From NCBI GenBank assembly GCA_030018135.1, contig JASEGJ010000004.1, positions 31 to 64,030 of the forward strand: a stretch of DNA of 64,000 nt. Reading direction: 5' to 3'. Shown here in pieces: positions 3,334 through 61,071 of the stretch. The notes under the pieces are model-generated. The model saw only the letters and a list, made by a program, of their open reading frames with translations, ran no database searches and was not told where the DNA came from. Position 1 is the first letter of the stretch; every line of letters begins with the position of its first letter. The stretch is from Candidatus Hodarchaeaceae archaeon (GTDB lineage: Archaea; Hadarchaeota; Hadarchaeia; Hadarchaeales; Hadarchaeaceae). Both the position numbers and the translations under genes were made by a program.

Positions 3334-3420
3334 AATGGCCCCGCGAACTAGGTCGCGTTTAAAATTTTACAATCAATTATAAACTGAAAGGCAAGCTTCA
3401 TAGGCGGCCACGGCATCATT

Positions 3421-4317
3421 TTGAGCGGTGGACACATGCTGGGGGAAAACTTCGTGCCCATTAGGCCGGGCTTCGGCGGCTTTGACGAGCCATACGAACG
3501 AGCTCGGGTAGTATTCATGGGCGTGCCGCTCGACGTGACCTCTTCGTACCGCTCGGGAACGCGCTTCGGGCCAGCTAGGATCCGCGAGGCGTCCATGAAC
3601 CTCGAGACGTACCTGATGTCGGCTGACCTCGACATCTTCGAGCGGCTCGGCGTTGCTGACGTCGGCGACCTCGTAATCTCATCAACAGATCTGGCGGCGA
3701 CCGGCGAGTGCATCGAGCGGGCCGTGCAAAAGTTCCGAGACGACGGCAAGGTGCCGGCTTTGCTCGGGGGCGAGCACACCTTGACGTATTTTGCCTCTAG
3801 GGCATTAAAGGGCGTATTCATCGTTCAGCTCGACGCCCACCGCGACCTGCGCGATGAGTACATGGGCGATAAGCTCTGCCATGCCACGGTCATGCGCAGG
3901 GTGCTGGACGACCTGCCTCCGAAGCGACTTTTACAGGTCGGTGTTAGGTCTTGCTCAAAGGAGGAGGCGGAGTTTGCGCGCTCGGCCGGACTTCGGGCTT
4001 ATGGGGTTGAGCAGGTGCTGGGCAACTCAGGCAAGGTGGTCGCTGACATCCGTAGAAGGGTAGGAAAGGCGCCCGTTTACCTGACCATCGACTTGGATGT
4101 GCTGGACCCAGCCTTCGCCCCCGGCGTCGCGACGCCCGAGCCAGGAGGCCTGTCGACTCTGAACCTGTTTAATCTCGTGCGGGAGCTTGGCAGGTTAAAC
4201 ATCTGCGCATTTGATGTGGTCGAGCTCGCCGCGCCGTACGATAGCGGCATAACGGCATTTGCGGCGGCCGGAATAGTTTATGAGCTGCTGGCGACGATGG
4301 CGAGTTCACCGAAGTAA
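3421..4317 (+). CDS. speB: Agmatinase (ureohydrolase/arginase family)
   Basis: Contains GGEHTLT, DAHRD and [12 protein letters not shown] signature motifs. Confidence 0.8.
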
Positions 4318-4890: not shown

Positions 4891-5547
4891 ATGTACGTTG
4901 TAATAGTGGGTGGAGGGCAGACGGGCTCAAGGCTCGCCAAGAGGATGGCCGACAGGGGCAATAACATCGTGGTGATCGAAAAGGACGAGAAGCGGGCCCA
5001 CGAGCTGGCTGCGGAGCTGGACGTGCTCGTGATCCACGGCAGTGGCGCGGACATCGATGTATTGAGAGACGCTGGCGTCGATAAGGCCGATGTTTTGGTG
5101 GCGCTCACCCAAGCAGACGAGGTAAATCTAATGGCATGCGAGCTTGCCAAGAAAATGGGCGTGCCGAGGGTGATCGCAAGGGTCAACGATGAAAAGCACG
5201 CAAGGATGTTCGAGGAACTCGGCGTCGACATCGCGGTCAGCCTCATCAGCGCGGCCGTGATGTTATTTGAGAAGGCGGTGAGCGGTCCGGGCGTTTATGG
5301 CTTGCTCGGCATCGGCGGGGGGAAGGGCGAGGTCGTCGAGGTCACGGTCGGGGCAGATTCAAAGGCGGTCGGGCGCAGGATCAAGGACATAAACGTCCCG
5401 AAGGGCTGCACGCTGGCGATGATAACGCGGGGCGACGACCTGATCCCGCCTAGGGGCGAGACGGAGATTTGGGCCGGGGATTTGGTCACCGTGGTTGGAA
5501 AGCCCGATGCGGTTTTGAAGGTCACCAAACACCTGCGCGGCGAGTGA
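4891..5547 (+). CDS. trkA: TrkA-type K+ transport regulatory protein (TrkA-N NAD-binding + TrkA-C)
   Basis: Contains VVIVGGGQTGSRLA Rossmann motif. 218 aa. Confidence 0.8.
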   Translation: MYVVIVGGGQTGSRLAKRMADRGNNIVVIEKDEKRAHELAAELDVLVIHGSGADIDVLRDAGVDKADVLVALTQADEVNLMACELAKKMGVPRVIARVNDEKHARMFEELGVDIAVSLISAAVMLFEKAVSGPGVYGLLGIGGGKGEVVEVTVGADSKAVGRRIKDINVPKGCTLAMITRGDDLIPPRGETEIWAGDLVTVVGKPDAVLKVTKHLRGE

Positions 5548-6286
5548 AATGCTTTTTGATGGCTTGCCAAGTTTCGGCGAGTTCGCCTTTAGACGCTATG
5601 CCAACGGCCACCGCGTCGACGCGGGCCCGCAGAAAATCGAACGCCTCGGCTGGCTTCAGCTCGCCCGCGGCGAGCGGCTTGATCGCGACGACCGGCAGTT
5701 TGATCGATGATAAAAGCCGCAAAGTTTCCTCTGGCCTCGGCCCCATCATGTAGCCAAGCTTGTTAACCGGGGCCATGACGAAATCCACATCGACCTCGCA
5801 CAGTTTTGGGAGGGTTTTCCAGGGTTGATGTGTGGCGACCCCGACTGCGGCACCAGCATCGCGTATTGCTGTAGCACATCGTTCTACCTCGCGCAAGTCG
5901 TGGTCGATGACTCCGGCGTGTAGTGCTATGCCCGCGGCGTTGAGGGCCACCATGTTTTTGAACTCGTCCATCAGCTCGCCCAAGCCGATGGTGCCGATGA
6001 CGCAGAGCTCGATGCCACACGCCTTCGCGGCGGCCTCCACCGCTTGGCAGATCCGAGGATATGCGACGACATGGACGGCCGGCACGCCCAGCTCGGCCGA
6101 GTCGGAGATGAGGCGCACCATGTTTTGAGGTCGCTCATAAAATGTCTGATAATAAACCATCGCCCTCGCGCCAAATTGGCCGGCGCCGCAAAATGGGCTC
6201 GTTCCGAGCATCGCTACGGGTACCTCGCGTTCGCCGAGCCTGAAAAGCCCGACATCACAAAAGTCGAGATACGATCGCAAGACCAA
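5522..6286 (-). CDS. Conserved hypothetical protein
   Basis: 254 aa ORF with protein-like composition. No family recognised from sequence. Confidence 0.4.
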   Translation of the reverse strand: MVLRSYLDFCDVGLFRLGEREVPVAMLGTSPFCGAGQFGARAMVYYQTFYERPQNMVRLISDSAELGVPAVHVVAYPRICQAVEAAAKACGIELCVIGTIGLGELMDEFKNMVALNAAGIALHAGVIDHDLREVERCATAIRDAGAAVGVATHQPWKTLPKLCEVDVDFVMAPVNKLGYMMGPRPEETLRLLSSIKLPVVAIKPLAAGELKPAEAFDFLRARVDAVAVGIASKGELAETWQAIKKHFTRRAGVW

Positions 6287-6289
6287 ACC

Positions 6290-7447
6290 TCATATGTGGA
6301 TCTCTACAATGTCCTTGTCCCGCAGCACGTAGTCCCTAGGGACCTGCTGGCCAGCGAAGCGCGTCGAGCCCCACACGCGGGCGAACTTTAGGTCGCGCGC
6401 GAATTCCTTGTGTATTGCCTCAGCTGCGTCGAGGACGGTGGAACTCTTCGGCAGCACCAGCGGGCGTCTCGCTGGCTCTTCATCTGGGCGCTTGGTGTAG
6501 ACCCGCACCACGTTCAAACTCTCGAAGATCAACTCCTTGAGTTTAGCCAAATTATCGCCGTTTGCGGCCGATACCAATATGGTGGGAAACCTACCGCCGT
6601 AGGCCTGCTGCAATTTCTCGAACCCATCCCCCTCCCCCGCCATGTCTCCCTTGTTTGCGATGGTGATGGCGCGGCGGTAGACAGATGATTCATCGAGCAC
6701 GTCCTCTAGCTCCTCGGCAGTTATCGGCTCCTCTATGATCACGACGGCGTTGTGGATGCGTTGCTCCTGCAGAATGCGCTTGAGTTCAGATCGTTCGCCC
6801 TTGAACATGCGAATGCCCCGAACCTCTATTCCTCCCGTGGCCTGGCGTTGAATGCTCAGCTTAGGCGGCCTCTGATTGAGTTTGATGCCCGCCTTTTCGA
6901 GTTCGGCAAGCAAAATTTCCATTTGTTCAAGCGGATCGGAGGAGGCGTCGACGATCAAGGCTATGGCGTCCGCGTTGCGGGCCACGCTCAGCGGCTGGGC
7001 TCCTAGGCCGCGACCCCTGTTTGAGCCTTCGATGAGCGCTGGCACCTCCACGAGCTGAATCTGCACGTCCTCGAATTCCATCATGCCGGGCACTGGTTCG
7101 CGCGTGGTGAAGGGGTACTCCGCGACCTCTGGTTGGGCGCTCGTCAATCGACGGAGCAACATCGATTTGCCCGAGTTTGGCATACCGACGAGGGCAACTT
7201 GGGCCGCGCCCTCCTTCTTGACATGAAAGCTCGGGCCGCCGCCAACTCGCCGCGTTTGCTGTTTGCGCAACTCGAGGCGCAGCTTCGCCAAGCGTCGCTT
7301 CAGCACCTTCAATAGCTTTTCCGTCCCCTTGTGCTTTGGGGCTATACGGATGAGTTCCTGCGTGGCGAGAATCTTCTCCTCCACAGTCTTTGCCTGCAGG
7401 TATCGCTCTTCGGCCTTGAAGTATTCGGGAGGAAGGTTGGCCGGCAT
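6290..7447 (-). CDS. Developmentally regulated GTP-binding protein (DRG/Obg-type GTPase with TGS domain)
   Basis: Contains GMPNSGKS P-loop. C-terminal TGS-like region. 385 aa. Confidence 0.85.
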   Translation of the reverse strand: MPANLPPEYFKAEERYLQAKTVEEKILATQELIRIAPKHKGTEKLLKVLKRRLAKLRLELRKQQTRRVGGGPSFHVKKEGAAQVALVGMPNSGKSMLLRRLTSAQPEVAEYPFTTREPVPGMMEFEDVQIQLVEVPALIEGSNRGRGLGAQPLSVARNADAIALIVDASSDPLEQMEILLAELEKAGIKLNQRPPKLSIQRQATGGIEVRGIRMFKGERSELKRILQEQRIHNAVVIIEEPITAEELEDVLDESSVYRRAITIANKGDMAGEGDGFEKLQQAYGGRFPTILVSAANGDNLAKLKELIFESLNVVRVYTKRPDEEPARRPLVLPKSSTVLDAAEAIHKEFARDLKFARVWGSTRFAGQQVPRDYVLRDKDIVEIHI

Positions 7448-7659
7448 TTGATCCCGAACGAAAATATGTTATTTCATCGGTTAAAATTCACGTCAGCGAT
7501 GATCTCGCCAAATTAAATGTCTTGAGCTATGCACGGCGGTGAAGTCCTCGCCGATTAGCCCAGCGTGCCAGTGCGGGCGGCAGCTGGTATTTTTTCTAAT
7601 TATCAACGTTAATTCTGGCAAAACGTTAGCTATTTAAGAGGGGCAAACAGATTGTTTTT

Positions 7660-7876
7660 GGCGGGGGTGAAGCCCGCGGCTACGGCCAAACCGGCGCCTA
7701 AGGGCGACGGGGAGCCTTGCAGGAACCAAGTGGACTTGGGAAGGGCGTGGCTAATGTGCCCGGTGGTGGGCGCGGAGGCAGGAACCGCGGGAAAAAGGCC
7801 CTAAGATGAAAAGGCAGCGGGGGGATGGTAACAGAACCTCGTTGAGGAGTAGTCGAGGGGTCGAATCCCCGCCCCT
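7660..7876 (+). ncRNA. rnpB: Candidate minimal (Pyrobaculum-like type T) RNase P RNA; alternatively another structured ncRNA
   Basis: Non-coding GC-rich block preceded by a TATA-like tatttaag element at 7632 and ending at a T-tract near 7877. CR-I-like GGUGAAGCCCGCGGCU at 7666 can pair with CR-V-like AGGAACCGCGGG at 7780 to form P4. The block contains AGAUGAA and ACAGAACC motifs resembling the bacterial 3' region. The 5' GGCGGGG can pair with 3' CCCCGCC to form P1. Confidence 0.4.
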
Positions 7877-7893: not shown

Positions 7894-9093
7894 CTACAAC
7901 TTTCGTACATACCCCATGAGCTTGTGCAGGCCAATCAAACGAAGCAGGCCGGGCCCCTTCTTCGCGAGGGCTTTGATGAGTTCCCCGTGATGATCGAAAT
8001 CGACATGCTCAAGTACGAGGGCCCCAACATCTGGCCTCCCGAGGAGTTCGAACGCCGAGTTTAAATCGTCATCGGACATTTTTTGAAGCACTTCCCTTGC
8101 GTACATGCCAAGCTTAAACTCCGCGCCAAACCTCTTGGCGACCGCGCGCTCGTACCCACGTAGGGCTTTCGCCGTTACTTCGCCCTCCAGAGCCTTCGAT
8201 GCGACATCTGCCGCCAGTTTTGCACACGATAATCCAATGTAAATGCCGCCGCCCGTCAGGGGCTTTACCTGCCCCGCCGCGTCGCCGACCAGCATGACGC
8301 TGTCCGCATAAATCTTTCGCGTGAAGGGGTGCGGGATCAGCCCCGCGGTGAAGTGTAGGACCTTGTCGGCATCGATTTTCTCCGACGCAACCGGATGTTT
8401 CTTCATGAAGTCGGCCAGCTTTCGCAGGGGCGAGCCCTCCGATGTACCGAGGCCCACCCTACAAACATCGCCGGCCGGCACGATCCAGGCGAAGAACCCC
8501 GGCGCGAAAGCACGACCGAAGTACAACTCCGCGGTACTCGCTTCGACATCGGCGATTGTCTCGACTTGTGCACAGCTGATACAGCGGGGGGACTTTAACA
8601 AGCCGGTTTTTCGCGCGATTAAAGAGGCTGGGCCGTCGGCGCCCATCACCAAGCGTGCCTTGATCTCGTCCCTCCCGCTTGTCCGCTTAACTTTCACGAT
8701 TACTCCCCGCCCGCGCGAAATATCGAGGCACTTGGTTTTCATCAGCAAGGTCGTGCCTGCGTTGACGGCGCCGACCGCGAGTTCTCGGTCAAAAGATGCG
8801 CGGTCGATCACCAGCGCTTCAACTTTTCCCCTGCCCAAGGGCACAGCGTCGCCCGAGGGCGGGTAAAAAACCGCACCCTTGAGATCGCCCAATACCCACT
8901 CGCCCGGCTTGATGCCGAGTTCCCCGAGCCCGCTTGTCCCCAAGATGCCAGCGCAGCATACCGGATGGCCGATCTCGGCGTGCTCCTCTATTATCGCAAC
9001 ATCGAACCCTCGTTCTGCCAACAACTTGCCTATGAAGCAACCCGCCGGGCCAGCGCCGACTATGGCAACGTCGTACAACATGCCGCCCGGCAA
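7894..9093 (-). CDS. Geranylgeranyl reductase family FAD-dependent oxidoreductase (digeranylgeranylglycerophospholipid reductase-like)
   Basis: Contains YDVAIVGAGPAG FAD motif. 399 aa. The start may be at M6 (9078). Confidence 0.8.
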   Translation of the reverse strand: MPGGMLYDVAIVGAGPAGCFIGKLLAERGFDVAIIEEHAEIGHPVCCAGILGTSGLGELGIKPGEWVLGDLKGAVFYPPSGDAVPLGRGKVEALVIDRASFDRELAVGAVNAGTTLLMKTKCLDISRGRGVIVKVKRTSGRDEIKARLVMGADGPASLIARKTGLLKSPRCISCAQVETIADVEASTAELYFGRAFAPGFFAWIVPAGDVCRVGLGTSEGSPLRKLADFMKKHPVASEKIDADKVLHFTAGLIPHPFTRKIYADSVMLVGDAAGQVKPLTGGGIYIGLSCAKLAADVASKALEGEVTAKALRGYERAVAKRFGAEFKLGMYAREVLQKMSDDDLNSAFELLGRPDVGALVLEHVDFDHHGELIKALAKKGPGLLRLIGLHKLMGYVRKL

Positions 9094-11703: not shown

Positions 11704-13266
11704 TTGGATTTAAGGTCGCTTATCGATGGCTTGGGTATCAATGAGAGGAAGGTCCTGCTCGCGCTTCAGCAGCTCAGCGGGGAAGCGGACATCGCGGACA
11801 TCGAGGGGCAAACTGGCCTCGAGCACGTGGCGGTGATGCGCGCGGCGCTAAACTTGGAGCAACGGGGGCTTGTCCGGATCAAGGAGCGGAGGCGGTCGAT
11901 GGCTGCGATAACCGAGGAGGGCCGGATGTACGCTAAGGACGGGCTGCCAGAGCGGCGCATGCTCCGGGCGCTGGTCGAACTCGCCCCCTGCACCGCGGAG
12001 GATGCTGCCGACCGCGCGGGGCTTCCCGAAGAGCAACTGCAGATCTCACTCGGCTGGCTGAGTCGCAAGGGCTGGGCGGTGTTCATCAAGCAGGCGGGGC
12101 GGGCGATGCTCGCACCGACGAGGGCCGGCGAGGAGGCGCTAAAGGAAAAGCGGTCGGACGAGCGGCTTTTGGAGGTGCTCGCCTCGGGCAACGTCGCGGA
12201 GGACGAGCTGCCGGAAGATTTGAGGCTCGAGCTAGATATCCTCAAAAAGCGTGAGTTGGCCTTCGTCAAGGAGGAAGTCTGGAGGAGGCTCGTGCTAACG
12301 GAGCTTGGCGAGCGGGCGCTGGCGCTGGGCATCGAACTCGTTGAGGAGGTCAGCGAGCTCACCCATGAGCTGCTGGCGAGCGGCAGGTGGCGGGAGGTTA
12401 GGTTCAGGCGCTACGATGTCACCGCCCCTGGGCCGCCGGTCTATCCGGGCAGGGTTCACCCCCAGCAGCGGGTCATCGACGAGCTTCGCGAGATCCTGCT
12501 GGAGATGGGGTTCGTCGAGGTCAAGAGCAACTTGGTCGAGTCGGAGTTCTGGAACTTCGACGCCCTCTTCCAAGCTCAAGATCACCCGGCGCGCGAGATC
12601 CACGATAGCCTCTCGCTCTCGAGGCCCGAGCGGACGAAACTTCCTTCATCGGCGTTGGTCAAACGGGTGGCCGCGGCCCACGAGCGCGGCGTCGCCGGGT
12701 CGACCGGCTGGGGATACAAGTTCGACATAGGTATAAGCAGAAGACCCGTGCTGTGCTCACAGACAACCGCCGCCACCGTGCGGTACCTTGCTTCACACCC
12801 AAAGCCGCCCGTCAAGGTATTATGCATTGATCGCGTCTACCGTCACGAGAGGATAGACTACAAGCACCTCGCCGAGTTCTACCAATGCGAAGGTATAGTG
12901 ATGGACCGCGGGCTCACGCTGCGTGACATGCTTGGGTACCTTAAGCAAATAATGGTCAAGCTTGGCTTCAAAAAAATAAGGTTCATGCCTTCGTATTTCC
13001 CCTATACGGAGCCCTCGGTACAAGCTCAGGTATATCACGAGGAGAAGCGGGAGTGGTTAGAAATCTTAGGAGCTGGGATCTTTAGACCAGAGTTGCTTCA
13101 TCCGCTTGGCATCCGTTATCCTGTGCTGGCTTGGGGCATTGGGTTGAGCAGGCTGATCATGGCTAGGCTAGGATTAGAAGATATCAGGGACCTTTTCCGC
13201 AATGACCTCCAGTGGATTTCGAGCTTTGTTTATACCAGGGGAACCAGAAAAGAATCCTCATCGTAG
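11704..13266 (+). CDS. pheS: Phenylalanine--tRNA ligase alpha subunit (archaeal)
   Basis: Class II aaRS motifs (FRRYDVTAPGPPVYPG...HPAREIHDS...FRPE). 520 aa. Confidence 0.9.
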   Translation: MDLRSLIDGLGINERKVLLALQQLSGEADIADIEGQTGLEHVAVMRAALNLEQRGLVRIKERRRSMAAITEEGRMYAKDGLPERRMLRALVELAPCTAEDAADRAGLPEEQLQISLGWLSRKGWAVFIKQAGRAMLAPTRAGEEALKEKRSDERLLEVLASGNVAEDELPEDLRLELDILKKRELAFVKEEVWRRLVLTELGERALALGIELVEEVSELTHELLASGRWREVRFRRYDVTAPGPPVYPGRVHPQQRVIDELREILLEMGFVEVKSNLVESEFWNFDALFQAQDHPAREIHDSLSLSRPERTKLPSSALVKRVAAAHERGVAGSTGWGYKFDIGISRRPVLCSQTTAATVRYLASHPKPPVKVLCIDRVYRHERIDYKHLAEFYQCEGIVMDRGLTLRDMLGYLKQIMVKLGFKKIRFMPSYFPYTEPSVQAQVYHEEKREWLEILGAGIFRPELLHPLGIRYPVLAWGIGLSRLIMARLGLEDIRDLFRNDLQWISSFVYTRGTRKESSS

Positions 13267-13489
13267 CGGGGGCGATGTTTCTGAAAAGAGAAATACTTTG
13301 GATGAACTGCGAAAAAGAAGAAAGAGGTGCCCAAAACTTAAATGGGCCTCATGTAGCGGGGCACTTCAAACCCCTTTATCGGCTTCGAAAGTACAGTAGG
13401 CGGGTTCCGGAATTCATTAAGGTAATCAAACCCCGCATCAAAGCTCAGCCCAGCACTGGTAGTCTAGCGTTTGGAGTGGAGGTTAGTTA

Positions 13490-15563: not shown

Positions 15564-15791
15564 CTCCTGCGAAGTCTCACGTATAAGGCCGATAGGCGAG
15601 TTCCCGTGAACCACATCCAAGGACCAACCGGGAGATCCTGCCCGCTCTTCAACCCCAAAAACAGGGCAATTGGGGCAAGCAGAGAGAAGTTTAAAAGTAA
15701 AAGGGAGAAATAAAGACAGAAATCAAAAATCGAGATAGGAAACAGAGGAATGATTAGAAAAAGGAAGGCGTAGATTGCTCAGATGGCATAA

Positions 15792-16142
15792 AAAGATGGC
15801 GGTTATTTGCACTCGATCCAGTTCGCCAAGCCCTCATTGGTTTGCGACATTCAAGAGATCTTCAGGGGCATGATAGACAAATTTCTAATCGGATATGCTC
15901 AGAAACTAAATCAGGATAGTTTTGAAAGAAAAGGCGAAAGGATGTTTTTGAAGCGAAAGGAGAGCTACAAGCTGATAAAGGCGATCAACAAACTACTCGA
16001 CAGGCGGATTGAACATCAAAGAATCAAGAAGTATGGAGAACACTCGAAGATAAGGACGGCAATTGGGGAGGAACCGATGAAGCTAGCGCAATATCTTAGG
16101 GATGAAAAGGAAAATTATGAACCTATTGGAGCTTTTCTATGA
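15792..16142 (+). pseudogene. cas1: CRISPR-associated Cas1, C-terminal fragment only (N-terminal two-thirds missing)
   Basis: ...GGYLHSIQFAKPSLVCDIQEIFRGMIDKFLIGYA...IRTAIGEEPMKLAQYLRDEKENYEPIG aligns to the Cas1 C-terminus (GFlH...sLvlDlmEefRp.vD...sYr.aielQa.kLa..l.ge.~Y.Pf). The reading frame opens at a stop with no ATG (TTG only). Upstream sequence is non-coding and AT-rich. Confidence 0.65.
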
Positions 16143-17284
16143 AGCACATTTTTGTGATCGGCGAAAAGGAAAAGCACGAAATCGAAGTAGACCACGGGTG
16201 GCTGGGTAAGGTAACTGTAAGGGTTGATGGAAAAATCAGGTCAAGTAAGCGCCTTCGGAGCTTACAAAGAGGCTCCTTCTGTAGATTAAAAGTCGGCGAA
16301 GAAGAGAAACATGAAGCTGAACTTAAGTTTGAAGGGCTTTTTCCAAAAATCAGATGTTATGTCGATGGATATCCCCAACTACGGGAGGCAATTATTCCTT
16401 CCAGATGGAAGAAGCCAATCTCTTTAACTACAATCTTAGTTGTGTGCATCATTGTGGGTTCCATCAGCTTTTACGGCGGAGCAACATGGATAATTAGAGA
16501 ATATGATAAAGCACTTGAAAATCTAACTAAAGAATTTACAATTCTTCCTCCATACGTTCAGATTGAAAATAGAAATGTAAATATAGTTTTCAAAGCGTCT
16601 AATGGAACGTTGCACCACTGGACTATTGGGGTAGATGTCCTAGAGGCACAAATTGAGCTGGGGTATTTAAGAAGAGAATTAATACCAGATTTATTTCTGC
16701 CAATGATAGAAGGTATCTACGAGGCGTATTTGCCGTTAGCTGTTTTAGCCGGCATCAGCTATACTGAGATACAAGAGGTATATGCATCAATAGAAAATCT
16801 GAGGTCTTTAGGTATTCAATACATCAACTTAACTGATAACGAAACAGGCGAAAATCATCTTGTAATTGATTTCAGACCTTTTGTTATAAACAATTTCGCT
16901 GAGGTTATATCCAATCTTTATCATGACTTAGGAAGTAGTGACAAAGCTCTTGTTTACGAAATTTGGTATATAGTCACCCAACTGACAACTTATCACTCAG
17001 AAATAAAGGAAACTCCCAGATTCCCATTAGAAACATTGATCGGTGGCGGTGGGGATTGCGAAGATTTAGCAATATTGATAGCGAGCATGCTAAAGGGAGT
17101 CCCAGCAAATTACACCATTAAATTGGTTTATATGGACGCCGATAATCCAACAGACCCAAAGGATGTTAATCATGTCATCGTTTGGGTCGAAACTCCCAGC
17201 GGGTACAAAACTTTTGTCGATGGGACTTCTCATACGGATATGTGTCCATTCACAGAAGTTATTGGGTGGTATTTTGACGTTTAA
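16139..17284 (+). CDS. Transglutaminase-like (Cys-His-Asp) putative cysteine protease, membrane-anchored
   Basis: One TM segment near residue 105. TGc core motifs GGGGDCEDLAILIASML (Cys), NHVIVWVE (His) and FVDGTS (Asp). Low GC. Confidence 0.65.
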   Translation: MKHIFVIGEKEKHEIEVDHGWLGKVTVRVDGKIRSSKRLRSLQRGSFCRLKVGEEEKHEAELKFEGLFPKIRCYVDGYPQLREAIIPSRWKKPISLTTILVVCIIVGSISFYGGATWIIREYDKALENLTKEFTILPPYVQIENRNVNIVFKASNGTLHHWTIGVDVLEAQIELGYLRRELIPDLFLPMIEGIYEAYLPLAVLAGISYTEIQEVYASIENLRSLGIQYINLTDNETGENHLVIDFRPFVINNFAEVISNLYHDLGSSDKALVYEIWYIVTQLTTYHSEIKETPRFPLETLIGGGGDCEDLAILIASMLKGVPANYTIKLVYMDADNPTDPKDVNHVIVWVETPSGYKTFVDGTSHTDMCPFTEVIGWYFDV

Positions 17285-17816
17285 AATTTGAAATTAAGGA
17301 GGAAAAATTTGGACATAACTTTGGACATAACTGGAATCATCGTAACTGTTTGCTGCACTGTTGCGGGTTCAGTAGCAATCGCATTTGTAAATGCATCACA
17401 AATTTGTCAATACATAACTAGAGAGGAAGTTTTTGTTTCAACATAAGAAGATTTTTAGGTGGAGTAAGTTCTAAACGGAGGCCCAGAGCCCCCATTCCGT
17501 TTCCTTTGAAAGATGGTTATTTGCTTGAGAAAGCAAATGAAAAGCCAGATAAGGAAGAGCGGTTATTTGGTTGAAAAAGCAGGTGAAAGTTTAAAGATCG
17601 GCTTGGCTTTTCTTTAACTTCTCCGGTCATTTTCGGTCATTATGGGTAATCCCATCGTTTAAATAAAGCAATAAAAGTATGTGGTTTTTCAGACCGAGTT
17701 ACAGGCAAAAGGATGTTTTAATTAGCCTTTTGTGGCTTTTCTTTGACCTCTTCGGTCATAACGAGAACAGCAAATCATTTAAAGCGCTTAAGACCACTAT
17801 CTTCAGAGGAGGTAAA

Positions 17817-18563
17817 AAAATGAGGAAAATAATAACATTGCTCATGGGCCTAGCGATCGTTTTGAGCACAACTGTATCTGCCAGCGCACAAAAATCCCAT
17901 GATGTCGCCAACGCGTCCCAAGATATCATCATCGAGAAGTACGTACACTACGTCACCCCTCCGTGGGCGGGCTGGCGAGTCTCGACGGACGAAAACGACC
18001 CATCTTACAAGCTTTTCAGGGGCGGGGTCAAGTGGTCGTCTGCAAGCTTGCCTGTGACCTATCACGTAGATCCGGATAACGCTCCAGTGGGAGCCGTCTC
18101 AGAAGTTCAAACGGCGTTTGAAACTTGGGACAATGTTGTAACAACCGAGCTATACAATTATGCCATTGTGAATTCGGACGCGCAACCAAGTTTGGACACT
18201 GGAGTAGTCGATTACGTAAACACGGTCACCTGGCGCCCGATACCTGACACCACGATAATAGCTGTGACCTACCTCGCTTGGAATCGCGTGACCAAGGAAC
18301 TTGTCGAATTTGACATAATCTTTAACAGCAATTTGGCTTGGGACATCGACAGAGACGGCGAGGGTGGAGTCGAATTAACTGGCGATAATTTCGATGTCAG
18401 AAACATAGCCACTCATGAAGCTGGCCACACGCTAGTGCTTGACGATCTATACAAGCCAAAAGCCAGGGAGCTGACAATGTACGGCTATTCGGAGCCAAGG
18501 GAAACGAAGAAAAGATCGCTAGGGCTCGGAGACAGGCTGGGAATAGAGAAGCTCTACGCCTGA
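17817..18563 (+). CDS. Secreted zinc metalloprotease, metzincin-like (HExxHxxGxxD with a Met-turn)
   Basis: RBS GGAGGT. Signal peptide MRKIITLLMGLAIVLSTTVSASA. HEAGHTLVLDD zinc motif. Downstream TMYGY Met-turn. Low GC. Confidence 0.7.
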   Translation, partial: KMRKIITLLMGLAIVLSTTVSASAQKSHDVANASQDIIIEKYVHYVTPPWAGWRVSTDENDPSYKLFRGGVKWSSASLPVTYHVDPDNAPVGAVSEVQTAFETWDNVVTTELYNYAIVNSDAQPSLDTGVVDYVNTVTWRPIPDTTIIAVTYLAWNRVTKELVEFDIIFNSNLAWDIDRDGEGGVELTGDNFDVRNIATHEAGHTLVLDDLYKPKARELTMYGYSEPRETKKRSLGLGDRLGIEKLYA

Positions 18564-18630: not shown

Positions 18631-19256
18631 AGGTTCACCCTGACCCCTCAAACCACCCATTTCCCAGCCCCCTCAACAACCCTTTCAAAAAGCGTTGACG
18701 GCAAATCTTGACCCAAATTCGCTGACCCTAATTCGATTTTGGCGATTTCTGGCGAAGGCAAACGGGGCGAGAATCTGCGGCATAAATTCGAAAGGAGCGA
18801 TTTAAAGGCTTTTCTTCCTGTTCCCAAGCTGTATAGGGCTGATTTTGACAAGTTCTATACCAGAGAAGTTTCAGATGGCATATTTTTGAGGCTGAAAATG
18901 GGAAAATAGTAAAAAAAGTTAAGATTTAACTTTTATAATCTTGGCAACTCCGACCTTAAAATCATACTGCTATCTCGGCTTTCAAACGTTTGAACGCCGC
19001 CATAATGGGGGTCTGCTATATGAGGAAACGTTTCCTCATGGGTCTTCTCGGTGTGGTCTGAACGCCACCGTGGTGGAAGCCCAACTTTTTTCAGGGGGCA
19101 GAGCCTGCCCTTTGAAATTTTAGGGGAACTCCACCATGGTGGAAGCCCGCCCCCGCGTTTCAGAACCTAGATTTTGAAACCTTTGAGGCCAACGGGTGGG
19201 ATAGCGCCTTGGAGTCAAAAAAAATAAAGGTAGGGAAAACAAAGATAACTCTAAAG

Positions 19257-58081: not shown

Positions 58082-58990
58082 ATGCTCGAGAAGTTGCGGC
58101 AAAAGTTCAGGCGAGTGGTCAAGCGCGTAACGCGTCGCGAGCTAAGCCCCGCCGATGTTGAGGATATCATCTGGGAGCTTCAAGTTGGCCTGCTTGAGAG
58201 CGATGTCGCCGTGCCCGTTGCGGATAAGATCATCGAGCGGGTCAGGGAGCAGCTCTCCGGACGAAAGCTGGGCCTAAAGGAAGATCCGCGAAAGCTCGCC
58301 GACGAGGTATTGCGCCAAGCAATTCATGAGGTGCTGGGCACCGACGGGAAAGTTGACCTGCTCAAGCTCATCGATGCCAAACGCGCGCGGGGCGAGCCGG
58401 CCGTGCTCGTTTTCGTTGGGATAAATGGTCATGGGAAAACAACCACAATAGCAAAGCTTGCAAAGTATCTATTGGACCGCGGTTACAAGCCGGTGCTTGC
58501 AGCCGCGGATACCTTTCGCGCCGCGGGTATAGAGCAGCTTGAAATTCACGCAGAGCGCTTGGACTTGGGTGTTGTTAAACAACGACGGGGCGCGGATGCC
58601 GCCGCCGTCGCCTACGATGCGGTCGCCCATGCTAAAGCTAGGGGGCTCGATGTCGTGCTCGTCGACACCGCCGGGCGGATGCAGACCGACATCAACCTAA
58701 TGGACGAAATGCGCAAAATCGTGAGGGTAGTTAAGCCGGACCTGACCATTTTCGTCGGCGATGCATTGACCGGCAACGACGCGGTCGAGCAGGCATCGAC
58801 ATTTGATCGGTCGGTCGGGATAGATGGCTCCATACTCTGCAAGATGGACGCCGACTCCCGCGGGGGAGCGGCCCTGTCGATAACCCATGTGACAGGCAAG
58901 CCGATTTTATTCTTGGGCACGGGACAGGGCTATGGCGATCTAGTGGAGTTCGATCCGAACATCATTTTGAATGCTTTATTCACCGACTGA
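58082..58990 (+). CDS. ftsY: Signal recognition particle receptor FtsY
   Basis: NG domain motifs: GINGHGKTTTIAKLA and DTAGR. Confidence 0.9.
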   Translation: MLEKLRQKFRRVVKRVTRRELSPADVEDIIWELQVGLLESDVAVPVADKIIERVREQLSGRKLGLKEDPRKLADEVLRQAIHEVLGTDGKVDLLKLIDAKRARGEPAVLVFVGINGHGKTTTIAKLAKYLLDRGYKPVLAAADTFRAAGIEQLEIHAERLDLGVVKQRRGADAAAVAYDAVAHAKARGLDVVLVDTAGRMQTDINLMDEMRKIVRVVKPDLTIFVGDALTGNDAVEQASTFDRSVGIDGSILCKMDADSRGGAALSITHVTGKPILFLGTGQGYGDLVEFDPNIILNALFTD

Positions 58991-59656
58991 TTTTTCACGA
59001 AGTTTTGCTTCGAGTTGCAGAATTCGCGCCCCATACTTTTCTCTAAGTTGTGTATACTCCTCACGGCTGAGTTCTCCACGTTCTCGACGCGCCCCTAGCT
59101 CAGCGAGCATCCTTCTCATTCGTTCCAGCGTCGCCCTCAGCCTCGCCTCTTCCGTGGGCACGCGAAGCGCTGCACCACTCTTCACGAGTAGCTCCCGAAC
59201 GTCGGAACCGCGGAGGTATGCTGCGGCTTCCGAGGCTCGGGCGTTGTCGATCACGACGGTGCTGGCAACGATATCGAACAACCTTTGCCTGCGGGGCGTT
59301 GCAAGAACTGCCGCCGCGTCAAATATCCCCAAGACGGTTACCAAGCCCACTCGCCGTAGCAAGGCCCTTGCAAATCCCACGCGCGCGCCGCCCTCTCCAT
59401 ATACCTTTATGTTTAACGCGTGTTTCCCAATGGTTTGTCCAAACGCCCCCTCTAGAGCTGTAAAGTAAATGAGGCTAATCAACAACAAGACTTGTACTGT
59501 CTTCTCATATGGATATGCCTCCTTTAGCAGGAAAAAAGCGGGCAGCGCCACTATCGCGGATAAAATGGCTTGGTCCATCACCCATGCCAGCAATCGCTTC
59601 CATGGCTTTGCCATTACTAGTTCGATGAGCATTCGCTCGTGGACATCGATCATCAC
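58976..59656 (-). CDS. RDD-family membrane protein with a C-terminal SHOCT-like coiled segment
   Basis: N-terminal RDD domain (WKRLLAWVMDQAI...). C-terminal GELSREEYTQLREKY. Confidence 0.55.
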   Translation of the reverse strand: MMIDVHERMLIELVMAKPWKRLLAWVMDQAILSAIVALPAFFLLKEAYPYEKTVQVLLLISLIYFTALEGAFGQTIGKHALNIKVYGEGGARVGFARALLRRVGLVTVLGIFDAAAVLATPRRQRLFDIVASTVVIDNARASEAAAYLRGSDVRELLVKSGAALRVPTEEARLRATLERMRRMLAELGARRERGELSREEYTQLREKYGARILQLEAKLREKSVGE

Positions 59657-59697
59657 ATTAACCTCATGAAAATGGAATAAATTGGATTACGGGCGAC

Positions 59698-61071
59698 CTA
59701 GCCCTCCCTCCCAAGTTCGGCACGCAGCAGCTTGATTATTTCACGTGGGTCGGCTCGCATATTCGTAAGTTGCATTACCTTCCCCACGAGAAAGTGTAGC
59801 GCTTCCTGCTTGCCCGCCAAATAATCCTTCACCACCTCAGGATTCGTCCTGATCGCCTCGGCTACGGCCGCCTGAAGTTCGGTTCGCCCCACCCTCACGA
59901 GCCCGAGCTGCAGCAACAACTCATGTGGGTCGCCGGGGCGCTTGACCAGCTCCCGCAATACAAGCTCGCCCTGCTCGGGAGTTATCTCATCGCTTTTGAT
60001 CATCTTTAACAAGTCGATCAACTGCTCGGGCACAAACTTGACATCCTCGGCGCGGAGCTTCATGTAGTTGAGGATTTTCTTGAGCTTGGTCCTGAACCAA
60101 GTTGCCACAAATTTGGGGTCGACCTCTCTAGCGACGACCTCAAACAAGTTCGCTAGCTCGCGTTCGCTGGCGATGACATTCGCGACGGATGGTCCGATGC
60201 CGTACTGCTTCACCAAACGCTGCTCGCGCAGGTGCGGCGCCTCCACCATACTCGCCTTAATCCTCCGTATGCGCGCCTGGTCGATGACGAGCGGAAATAT
60301 ATCTGGGTCAGGTATGTAGCGGTAATCCTCCTCGAGTTCCTTCAAGCGCATGGGCATGGTGATCTTTTGACTTTCTAGGTAGGCGCGGGTTTCGCGCGTC
60401 ACGGCCTCACCCCGCTCAAGTTTGGCCCTTTGCCTCATTATCTCGAACTTTATCGCGCGGTAGGCGCCCTTCACCGAGTTGATATTCTTTACCTCGACGC
60501 GCCCGCCCCCCTCGAGCGAGATGTTGGTGTCGGTGCGCATTGCCCCACCTGCCTCCGGCCGCACCTTGCCGGAGTATTCGAGCAAGCGGACGAGTTGCCT
60601 GAGGAACTTTCGAGCCTCCTCCGGCGAGTGCATGTCCGGCTCGGTGACTATCTCCACAAGTGGGACTCCGGAGCGGTTGAAGTCGACGGTGCCGAGCGTG
60701 GGGTCATACTGCCCGGGGTCCTCCTCCAGATGAACCTCACGAATTCGCACGCCCTGTAGTTCGCCATTCAGGCCGATCGGCAAGCTGGTGCGCTGGTAGC
60801 CGCTAGGCAGGTCGGGGTAATCATAATGCTTCCGCTGGATGTAGATGATCCGGTCGGCGATGATCTCGCACCCAAGCATGAGCGCTATCTCGATCGCTGC
60901 GTCGACCGCCCGCTCGTTCGGGGGGAGCGGCTTCGACCCCGGCATCCCCGTGCAAATTGGGCAGATGTTGGTATTTGGTGGGACCTCTTGGTAATTCGTC
61001 GGACAGTCGCAGTACATCTTCCGCCCCGTGGAGAGCTGTTGGTGGACCTCAAATCCAATGAGCATCTTCAT
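59698..61071 (-). CDS. gatB: Asp-tRNA(Asn)/Glu-tRNA(Gln) amidotransferase subunit B
   Basis: MKMLIGFEVHQQL... GatB/YqeY. Start at M41 gives a 4-nt overlap with the gatA stop. Confidence 0.9.
   Translation of the reverse strand: MKMLIGFEVHQQLSTGRKMYCDCPTNYQEVPPNTNICPICTGMPGSKPLPPNERAVDAAIEIALMLGCEIIADRIIYIQRKHYDYPDLPSGYQRTSLPIGLNGELQGVRIREVHLEEDPGQYDPTLGTVDFNRSGVPLVEIVTEPDMHSPEEARKFLRQLVRLLEYSGKVRPEAGGAMRTDTNISLEGGGRVEVKNINSVKGAYRAIKFEIMRQRAKLERGEAVTRETRAYLESQKITMPMRLKELEEDYRYIPDPDIFPLVIDQARIRRIKASMVEAPHLREQRLVKQYGIGPSVANVIASERELANLFEVVAREVDPKFVATWFRTKLKKILNYMKLRAEDVKFVPEQLIDLLKMIKSDEITPEQGELVLRELVKRPGDPHELLLQLGLVRVGRTELQAAVAEAIRTNPEVVKDYLAGKQEALHFLVGKVMQLTNMRADPREIIKLLRAELGREG

Follow-up and report, generated by a model that had tools for sequence, protein, structure and literature searches.

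What is a truncated cas1 gene doing in an archaeal contig that shows no CRISPR system around it? In the window, the whole 64-kb stretch of DNA that was analysed, the first-pass annotation had reported a C-terminal remnant of Cas1 and had offered two readings of it, a decayed adaptation module or a casposon relic.

The truncated cas1 gene and its surroundings

The fragment lies at 15792–16142 on the plus strand. Its frame opens directly after a stop codon (TAA at 15789–15791), as had been described, and ends with TGA at 16140–16142; the program-called ORF within it (15807–16142) starts at a TTG and encodes 111 aa. The fragment matched the Pfam model PF01867 (Cas_Cas1) at 38.5 bits, above the cut-off of 22.3 (E = 9.5e-10), and its residues 4–66 aligned to model positions 217–282 of 283. 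The NCBIfam model TIGR00287 (cas1) agreed (E = 3.8e-15), with residues 4–109 aligned to model positions 221–326 of 327, and the proposed homology was thus confirmed. Because these alignments cover the ends of both models, the sequence indicates a genuine Cas1 C-terminus that comprises the last ~112 residues, with approximately the first 214 absent. The fragment corresponds to residues 215–326 of the 334-aa Cas1 at a related locus, L006, to which it was 74% identical, and it was 81% identical to the Cas1 of another related locus, L017. A casposase-type C-terminal HTH was considered for the ~50 residues past the Pfam match and was rejected, as TIGR00287 covers the fragment to its end.

The first-pass annotation had stated that the N-terminal catalytic part was deleted, which was correct in part. 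The lost codons 1–214 comprise the N-terminal domain and the catalytic Glu153, whereas His218, Asp230 and Glu233 (L006 numbering), three of the four Cas1 catalytic residues, are retained. Searches by tblastn with longer relatives as queries revealed no further Cas1 piece upstream of the fragment or elsewhere in the window, in any frame. The gene is therefore truly 5'-truncated and not frameshifted, and the truncation is a true deletion junction; an upstream exon, which had been envisaged earlier, does not exist in the window. The same searches led us to reject a split integrase of the SSV type, in which the element would carry the N-terminal half at its opposite end.

We found no CRISPR array in the 64 kb with TRF, with a search for direct repeats within 120 nt or with the Rfam CRISPR-DR families. 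When ~50 large ORFs from all parts of the window were scanned against Pfam, the scans yielded housekeeping families only (PheRS, SecDF, EF-2, SAM synthetase and hydrogenase subunits among them) and no other cas genes. On both points the earlier description of the surroundings stood. The genomic neighbours of the fragment were UPF0146, a 381-aa gene and an M10 peptidase gene, and neither cas2 nor cas4 adjoined cas1 among these neighbours or in the gene lists of its relatives. An E-value scan with Rfam and a promoter and terminator scan of 15.5–19.3 kb yielded nothing relevant.

Complete relatives in Hadesarchaea and Hadarchaeota

A scan of the GTDB species genomes (trimmed alignment) returned 12 loci, all in MAGs of Hadesarchaea/Hadarchaeota, and several genomes carried two copies. 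A full-length Cas1 was present at two of the 12, L006 and L005; the L006 protein (334 aa) aligned to PF01867 positions 2–283 of 283 (E = 7e-59). A protein search with the 116-aa fragment gave 58 matches of 63–201 aa and no full-length protein, while the 334-aa relative as query retrieved more than 20 full-length proteins at 77–91% identity and ~100 more down to 35%. The full-length relatives measured 326–338 aa. A conserved family of miniature Cas1 proteins, suggested by the finding that all homologues were short, was rejected on the result with the full-length query; the picture was an artefact of word-index candidate selection combined with a C-terminal query.

Full-length relatives that are 74–81% identical over the fragment were located in elements of 9.5–10.6 kb, in Hadesarchaea/Hadarchaeota MAGs and metagenome contigs. 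The intact layout comprises, in order, a left terminal inverted repeat (TIR-L), cargo, polB on the minus strand, a ~220-aa gene with a weak HTH-type match, a ~285-aa gene, cas1, further cargo and the right terminal inverted repeat (TIR-R). The L006 element spans 9.95 kb, with TIRs at 3336–3486 and 13137–13287 (151 nt, 94% complementary), and the L005 element spans 9.57 kb, with TIRs at 3419–3628 and 12777–12986 (210 nt, 99% complementary). Their polymerases (651–653 aa) belong to family B and are of the organellar/viral type (PF03175 DNA_pol_B_2, E = 1.1e-18 for L006). Cas1 was likewise accompanied by DNA_pol_B_2 at L017, L018/L019, L020/L021 and L022, and TIRs of 118–150 nt were identified at L017, L018 and L022. 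Altogether, polB linkage was seen in six of the eight full-length relatives examined, five of which also had TIRs; two relatives at 36–38% identity were solo Cas1 genes. Direct repeats of 13 bp flanked complete elements (GTTAAATTTTAAC on both sides of L017; GTTAAAATTTAAC at L006 and L018), and the target repeat of L005, AGTTAAGGTTTATAT, measured 13–15 bp with ambiguous edges. The 13-bp target GTTAAATTTTAAC is near-palindromic and AT-rich. Cas1, PolB, TIRs and TSDs together define a casposon (PMC9939771), and we assign the closest full-length relatives of the fragment, from their sequences and gene contexts, as casposases.

Genes of defence type were observed as cargo or neighbours of casposons and relics at L006 (3583–4449 and 4619–4996), L004 (207–5140), L018 (11070–13460) and L053 (2881–4943). 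They encode a TIR-domain (ThsB-like) protein, a GIY-YIG protein, a Shedu SduA_C protein with an OLD-TOPRIM ATPase, an HATPase_c_3 protein, and a methyltransferase with a SacI-like endonuclease.

The relatives also bear on the first of the two earlier readings, in which the fragment would be the pseudogene of a CRISPR-Cas adaptation module that has lost the 5' part of cas1, cas2 and the array. The Hadarchaeota proteins share the fold family and the catalytic motif E...H...D..E with CRISPR-associated Cas1 (A. fulgidus 4N06, types I-B and I-D), which also gave their highest PDB and NCBIfam scores. Among NCBIfam models, the generic CRISPR model for cas1 (TIGR00287) scored best with the fragment and those for types I-B and I-D came next, and a full-length relative matched the CRISPR-associated Cas1 of A. 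fulgidus (4n06) at E = 6.8e-26, ahead of the M. mazei casposase (6opm) at E = 3.2e-19, although these values are similarity scores and not a tree. Against such likeness stands the genomic context. The window holds no array, cas2, cas4 or effector genes; cas2, cas4 and an array were absent beside all eight full-length relatives examined, the majority of which showed the polB and TIR associations given above; and downstream of the fragment the window carries the right TIR of a casposon together with a target copy. Unlike a CRISPR adaptation module, neither the window nor the relatives presented a Cas2 partner, a leader or an array, and the context is that of a transposon. We consider a decayed adaptation module scarcely credible. 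The second reading, a casposon relic, was upheld, since the full-length relatives sit in elements with polB, TIRs and TSDs and the window has a right TIR and a target.

The host deserves a remark. NCBI labels the source MAG 'Candidatus Hodarchaeaceae archaeon', and Hodarchaeaceae is an Asgard family. Positions 53–60.5 kb of the window (~8 kb of host genes) were collinear with the Hadarchaeota MAG L012 at 58–89% amino-acid identity, and all related loci with a taxon name came from Hadesarchaea or Hadarchaeota. In view of this collinearity and the origin of the related loci, the NCBI taxon label is probably wrong (a mix-up of Had- and Hod-) or the bin is misassigned.

The probable casposon right arm in the window

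What remains between ~15654 and 18930 is very probably one end of a casposon, a self-synthesising transposon that uses a Cas1 homologue as its integrase: the right arm, now unable to move. The sequence homology, the layout of the related elements, the right repeat, the target copy and the base composition were observed directly. The window contains no match to PolB (tblastn, L006 PolB as query), no left TIR and no second copy of the target, so the stretch is classed as a casposon through its homology with complete elements found elsewhere, and the missing polB makes the window copy a relic and not an intact casposon. Having lost its left two thirds, the element retains cas1 from codon 215, the 381-aa gene, the metallopeptidase gene, TIR-R and one target copy; the two conserved ORFs of the intact element (~220 and ~285 aa) are absent from the relic. 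The G+C content of the relic was 42.3%, compared to 61% in the left and 53% in the right host flank, and four of five complete casposons had 40–42% (L022, 33%).

Directly behind the Cas1 fragment follows a program-called ORF of 381 aa (16139–17284, plus strand), a casposon cargo gene with a possible transglutaminase-like cysteine-protease core; the Pfam match to Transglut_core was weak and below the cut-off (E = 0.011). Its start overlaps the cas1 stop by 4 nt (ATGA), and a GGAG motif lies 8 nt upstream of the start. The product was 60% identical to that of the gene after the Cas1 fragment (from residue 163) in L001, and 50% identical to that of the gene after full-length cas1 in L031 and L032, where the ATGA overlap was also present; both of these contigs have polB upstream of cas1 and end inside the homologue of the 381-aa gene. 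The sequences point to a 381-aa gene that is translationally coupled to cas1, with the overlap inherited from the intact arrangement. A small program-called ORF of uncertain status follows (17288–17446, plus strand, 52 aa). Between the 381-aa gene and the right TIR sits the second cargo gene, at 17679–18563 on the plus strand, which encodes an M10 (matrixin)-type metallopeptidase (PF00413, E = 1.4e-6, 28.7 bits, cut-off 24); its true start is likely the ATG at 17821, ahead of a signal-peptide-like N-terminus. Two short direct-repeat pairs (17515/17561 and 17604/17733) were noticed between the 52-aa ORF and the M10 gene (17500–17760).

The right TIR occupies 18690–18917 (plus strand) and was identified by blastn matches and alignments to relatives. 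Window positions 18688–18774 and 18870–18928 matched L005 12751–12838 and 12935–12992, the inner and outer parts of its 210-nt right TIR, and matches to the right ends of L006, L010 and L014 were also obtained. The outer end reads ...GGGAAAATAGTAAAAAAA; the repeat finishes with ...AATAGTAAAAAAA at 18917 and is followed at 18918–18930 (plus strand) by the single copy of the 13-bp integration target, GTTAAGATTTAAC, recognised by its position and by the near-identical sequences that flank complete elements. The motif of TIR end plus target occurred once in the window, with 0.09 occurrences expected by chance, 2.8 kb downstream of the Cas1 fragment and in like orientation. The suggestion that casposon TIRs might flank the island was therefore realised on one side, at 18690–18917, and no inverted partner of this repeat was found. 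Just outside the casposon end, ahead of secD, three units of ~21–27 nt (GAACGCCACCGTGGTGGAAGCCC and variants), spaced 66–68 nt, were noticed at 18988–19148. The region around them (18960–19200) forms stable hairpins (z = -4.3 vs shuffles) and gave no Rfam match and no homology in the related loci compared; candidates are a structured element between genes, a set of terminators or perhaps a portion of an integration 'leader'.

Upstream of the fragment, the ~230 nt had been described as AT-rich non-coding DNA, which did not hold. Of these 228 nt, 15564–15653 has 58% G+C, and 15654–15792 (38% G+C) is homologous to casposon right ends. On the plus strand, the latter segment is a partial right-end (TIR/subterminal) sequence in direct orientation, recognised by blastn and right-end alignments. 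Its best match was L001 3280–3368 (77% over 91 nt, blastn), which lies 97–185 nt inside the right terminus of L001, and it aligned to the right ends of L001, L005, L006, L010 and L017 up to the motif TCAGATGGCAT. Some 30–45 nt at the outer end of this repeat are lacking, and cas1 sequence begins, at codon 215, no more than about 8 nt further on. We interpret 15654–15792, from these alignments, as the putative solo remnant of another casposon copy that abuts the truncated cas1. A non-autonomous, MITE-like casposon with two TIRs was rejected, as the upstream repeat is direct and has no inverted partner.

The junction between the upstream repeat and cas1 falls at 15793–15800, and no single clean event can be resolved in it. 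Since the contig comes from a metagenome assembly, and since related genomes contain casposons and remnants of their TIRs in multiple copies, the truncated structure might have arisen by the misjoining, at repeats, of reads from several casposon copies. However, the junction joins TIR-like sequence to the middle of cas1 and offers no common repeat for an assembler to collapse, and comparable right-arm relics were present in independent assemblies (L001/L002 from two sources, L007 and L011). An assembly artefact is thus highly unlikely. With a genuine right-arm relic, the lack of an N-terminal domain, of Glu153 and of a polymerase, together with the single TIR, means that the relic encodes no active casposase and can no longer move in one piece. 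Expression of the cargo genes, which are intact, is possible.

Stacking, decay and the status of the fragment

Complete and partial casposon ends were found side by side in related genomes. At L006 13250–13430, TIR-R and the target are followed by the TIR-L of a second, remnant copy at the right end; the L018 element lies between a solo TIR-R and a solo TIR-L (4937–5075 and 15600–15761); and in L001 two ends face each other 2.5 kb apart (3441–3482 / 5998–6039). Such stacks of ends are attributed to the near-palindromic target, which is regenerated and reused at each insertion; in M. mazei, too, casposons are reported to stack in tandem where the target is regenerated (PMC9939771).

The Cas1 fragments of other genomes start at residues 98, 163, 166, 215, 218, 220, 234, 271, 281, 296 and 302. 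Some relics are frameshifted, inverted or tandem, or consist of just 20–30 codons, and inverted pieces occur in L008. In L009, three Cas1 3' ends lie in tandem (6922–7095, 7652–7723 and 8328–8393), spaced 646 and 667 nt, which looks like a small graveyard of successive relics; the last of them was observed to abut the final 26 codons of a gene of the 381-aa family. In L001, L007 and L011, too, the right-end motif follows the Cas1 fragment downstream, at a distance of ~2.6–3.5 kb. These varied breakpoints and pieces form a graded decay series across genomes, although the apparent constant retention of the 3' end and right arm is partly an ascertainment effect of C-terminal queries. Four loci break near residues 215–220, with upstream sequences that are unrelated and lack a TIR end, and the idea that insertions favour the GYLH codons, where GGTTATTTGCAC is similar to the target, was not supported. 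Two further observations concern the surroundings of relics. L001 1–260 and L003 5706–5850 (GCA_054773095.1) have a GC-rich upstream flank in common with different breakpoints (residues 163 vs 234), which suggests segmental duplication followed by further deletion. In L012, a 30-codon Cas1 remnant (1207–1305) lies between the ftsY-like and gatB orthologues of the window, where the window has an RDD-family gene instead (~58990–59850); related genomes therefore differ in the sites at which casposon remnants lie. We found no empty site; L008 has the pheT end in common with the window but not the neighbourhood.

For the window, we propose that each insertion would regenerate the target, so that elements stack beside or into one another and leave solo repeats. 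Illegitimate deletion, in one or a few events, would then have taken away TIR-L together with polB, both conserved ORFs and codons 1–214 of cas1, and its breakpoint would have been joined to the leftover right-end repeat of another casposon copy. In one possible history, a casposon inserted beside an older solo right end, and a single deletion of ~6.5–7 kb ran from the tip of the old right end across the target, TIR-L and polB into cas1, whose first 214 codons it removed. In another, a copy was already resident, its cas1 was hit by an incoming casposon, and a deletion came afterwards. Both histories would fit the window equally well, as the junction sequence does not discriminate between them.

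Whether the 111-aa ORF has been kept for a purpose must be weighed against this background. It could be a maintained small protein, acting on casposon integration as a dominant-negative or DNA-end-binding repressor, or its translation could be needed for expression of the overlapping 381-aa gene. The ORF is intact, NCBI annotates it as a CDS ('CRISPR-associated endonuclease Cas1'), and many short homologues exist in other genomes. Compared with full-length casposases, only one of 67 conserved positions deviates (Arg to Gly in TAIREE), a count that falls within the range of related full-length genes (77–91% identical) and is uninformative as to function versus recency of truncation. The deviation count and the unameliorated composition fit a recent truncation, which would explain the intact frame, and retained function is equally compatible with an intact ORF. 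The ATGA overlap with the 381-aa gene, and the GGAG ahead of its start, could speak for coupling, but the overlap is inherited from the intact arrangement. Moreover, the N-terminal domain is missing, and the breakpoints, which vary from residue 98 to 302, and the frameshifted, inverted and 20–30-codon copies represent decay and not a conserved architecture. The only start codon of the ORF is a TTG within the motif GYLH, and the scan revealed no promoter-like site ahead of it, a result that says little for an archaeon because the scan models bacterial sigma-70 only. We consider a maintained functional protein unlikely, and the 111-aa ORF is most likely a young pseudogene that has not yet degraded, an ORF that we infer to be without function.

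A specific form of the functional reading merits mention. Inhibitors derived from truncated transposases provide an analogue for a repressor fragment, and by this analogy the fragment could be kept as a small protein with affinity for casposon ends or for the full-length casposase, and could in this way repress or redirect the insertion of incoming casposons at the common 13-bp target. We regard this as improbable; if true, it would account for the recurrence in Hadarchaeota genomes of right arms whose Cas1 C-terminus is intact. With the ORF read as a pseudogene and transposon remnant, the NCBI label would falsely imply a capacity for CRISPR adaptation in the genome.

Likeness to known casposon families and meaning

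The Hadarchaeota lineage resembles the family 1 casposons of Nitrosopumilus/Thaumarchaeota (casposase of Ca. N. koreensis AR1), by features rather than by a tree; the family 1 features were taken from PMC8464041 and PMC9939771. Common to both are a casposase of ~330–350 aa without a C-terminal HTH, a protein-primed-type polymerase (Pfam DNA_pol_B_2 in the Hadarchaeota elements), a compact gene set of cas1, polB and a few genes of unknown function, and site-specific integration with a 13-bp TSD (13 bp in L017 and L006, 13–15 bp in L005). The absence of the HTH was evident from the length of the relatives (326–338 aa), which align as far as TIGR00287 position 326 of 327, and from the alignment of a relative to 6OPM, which covers residues 72–348 of the 431-residue chain and nothing beyond. 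The elements differ from family 1 in their hosts, which here are Hadesarchaea/Hadarchaeota, in their long TIRs (118–210 nt) and in their target, the near-palindromic GTTAAATTTTAAC as opposed to ATTGATAAAGAGT; the window copy also differs in being a right-arm relic only.

Family 2 casposons (Aciduliprofundum boonei, Methanosarcina mazei; 6OPM) likewise have a Cas1-family integrase, polB, TIRs and TSDs, and the M. mazei casposase was the second-best PDB match of the relative. Family 2 casposases measure ~405 aa and have an essential C-terminal HTH, whereas the Hadarchaeota proteins have no counterpart to the region of 6OPM past residue 348. The TSDs of family 2 are ~14–15 bp long, with targets at the ends of tRNA or EF-2 genes, in contrast to the AT-rich 13-mer found here. 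More generally, the relic resembles deletion derivatives and solo ends of DNA transposons in its one terminal repeat, its truncated transposase gene, its retained passenger genes and its non-autonomous state, but here the role of the 'transposase' belongs to a Cas1 homologue, and a DNA polymerase is encoded by the parent element itself.

The feature in the window is by itself an ordinary mobile-element relic, another example of a decayed casposon. It led, however, to a set of complete casposons in Hadesarchaea/Hadarchaeota, elements of ~10 kb with long TIRs, a PolB of the protein-primed type and a casposase without HTH, which are further marked by a 13-bp near-palindromic target, many stacked or truncated copies and defence-like cargo. 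Among the papers searched, we found none linking casposons with Hadesarchaea/Hadarchaeota. Because the CRISPR adaptation module is proposed to descend from casposons, an additional family-1-like lineage with a clear target and clear TIRs would be useful for integration biochemistry and for the phylogeny of Cas1. The lineage is of moderate specialist interest.
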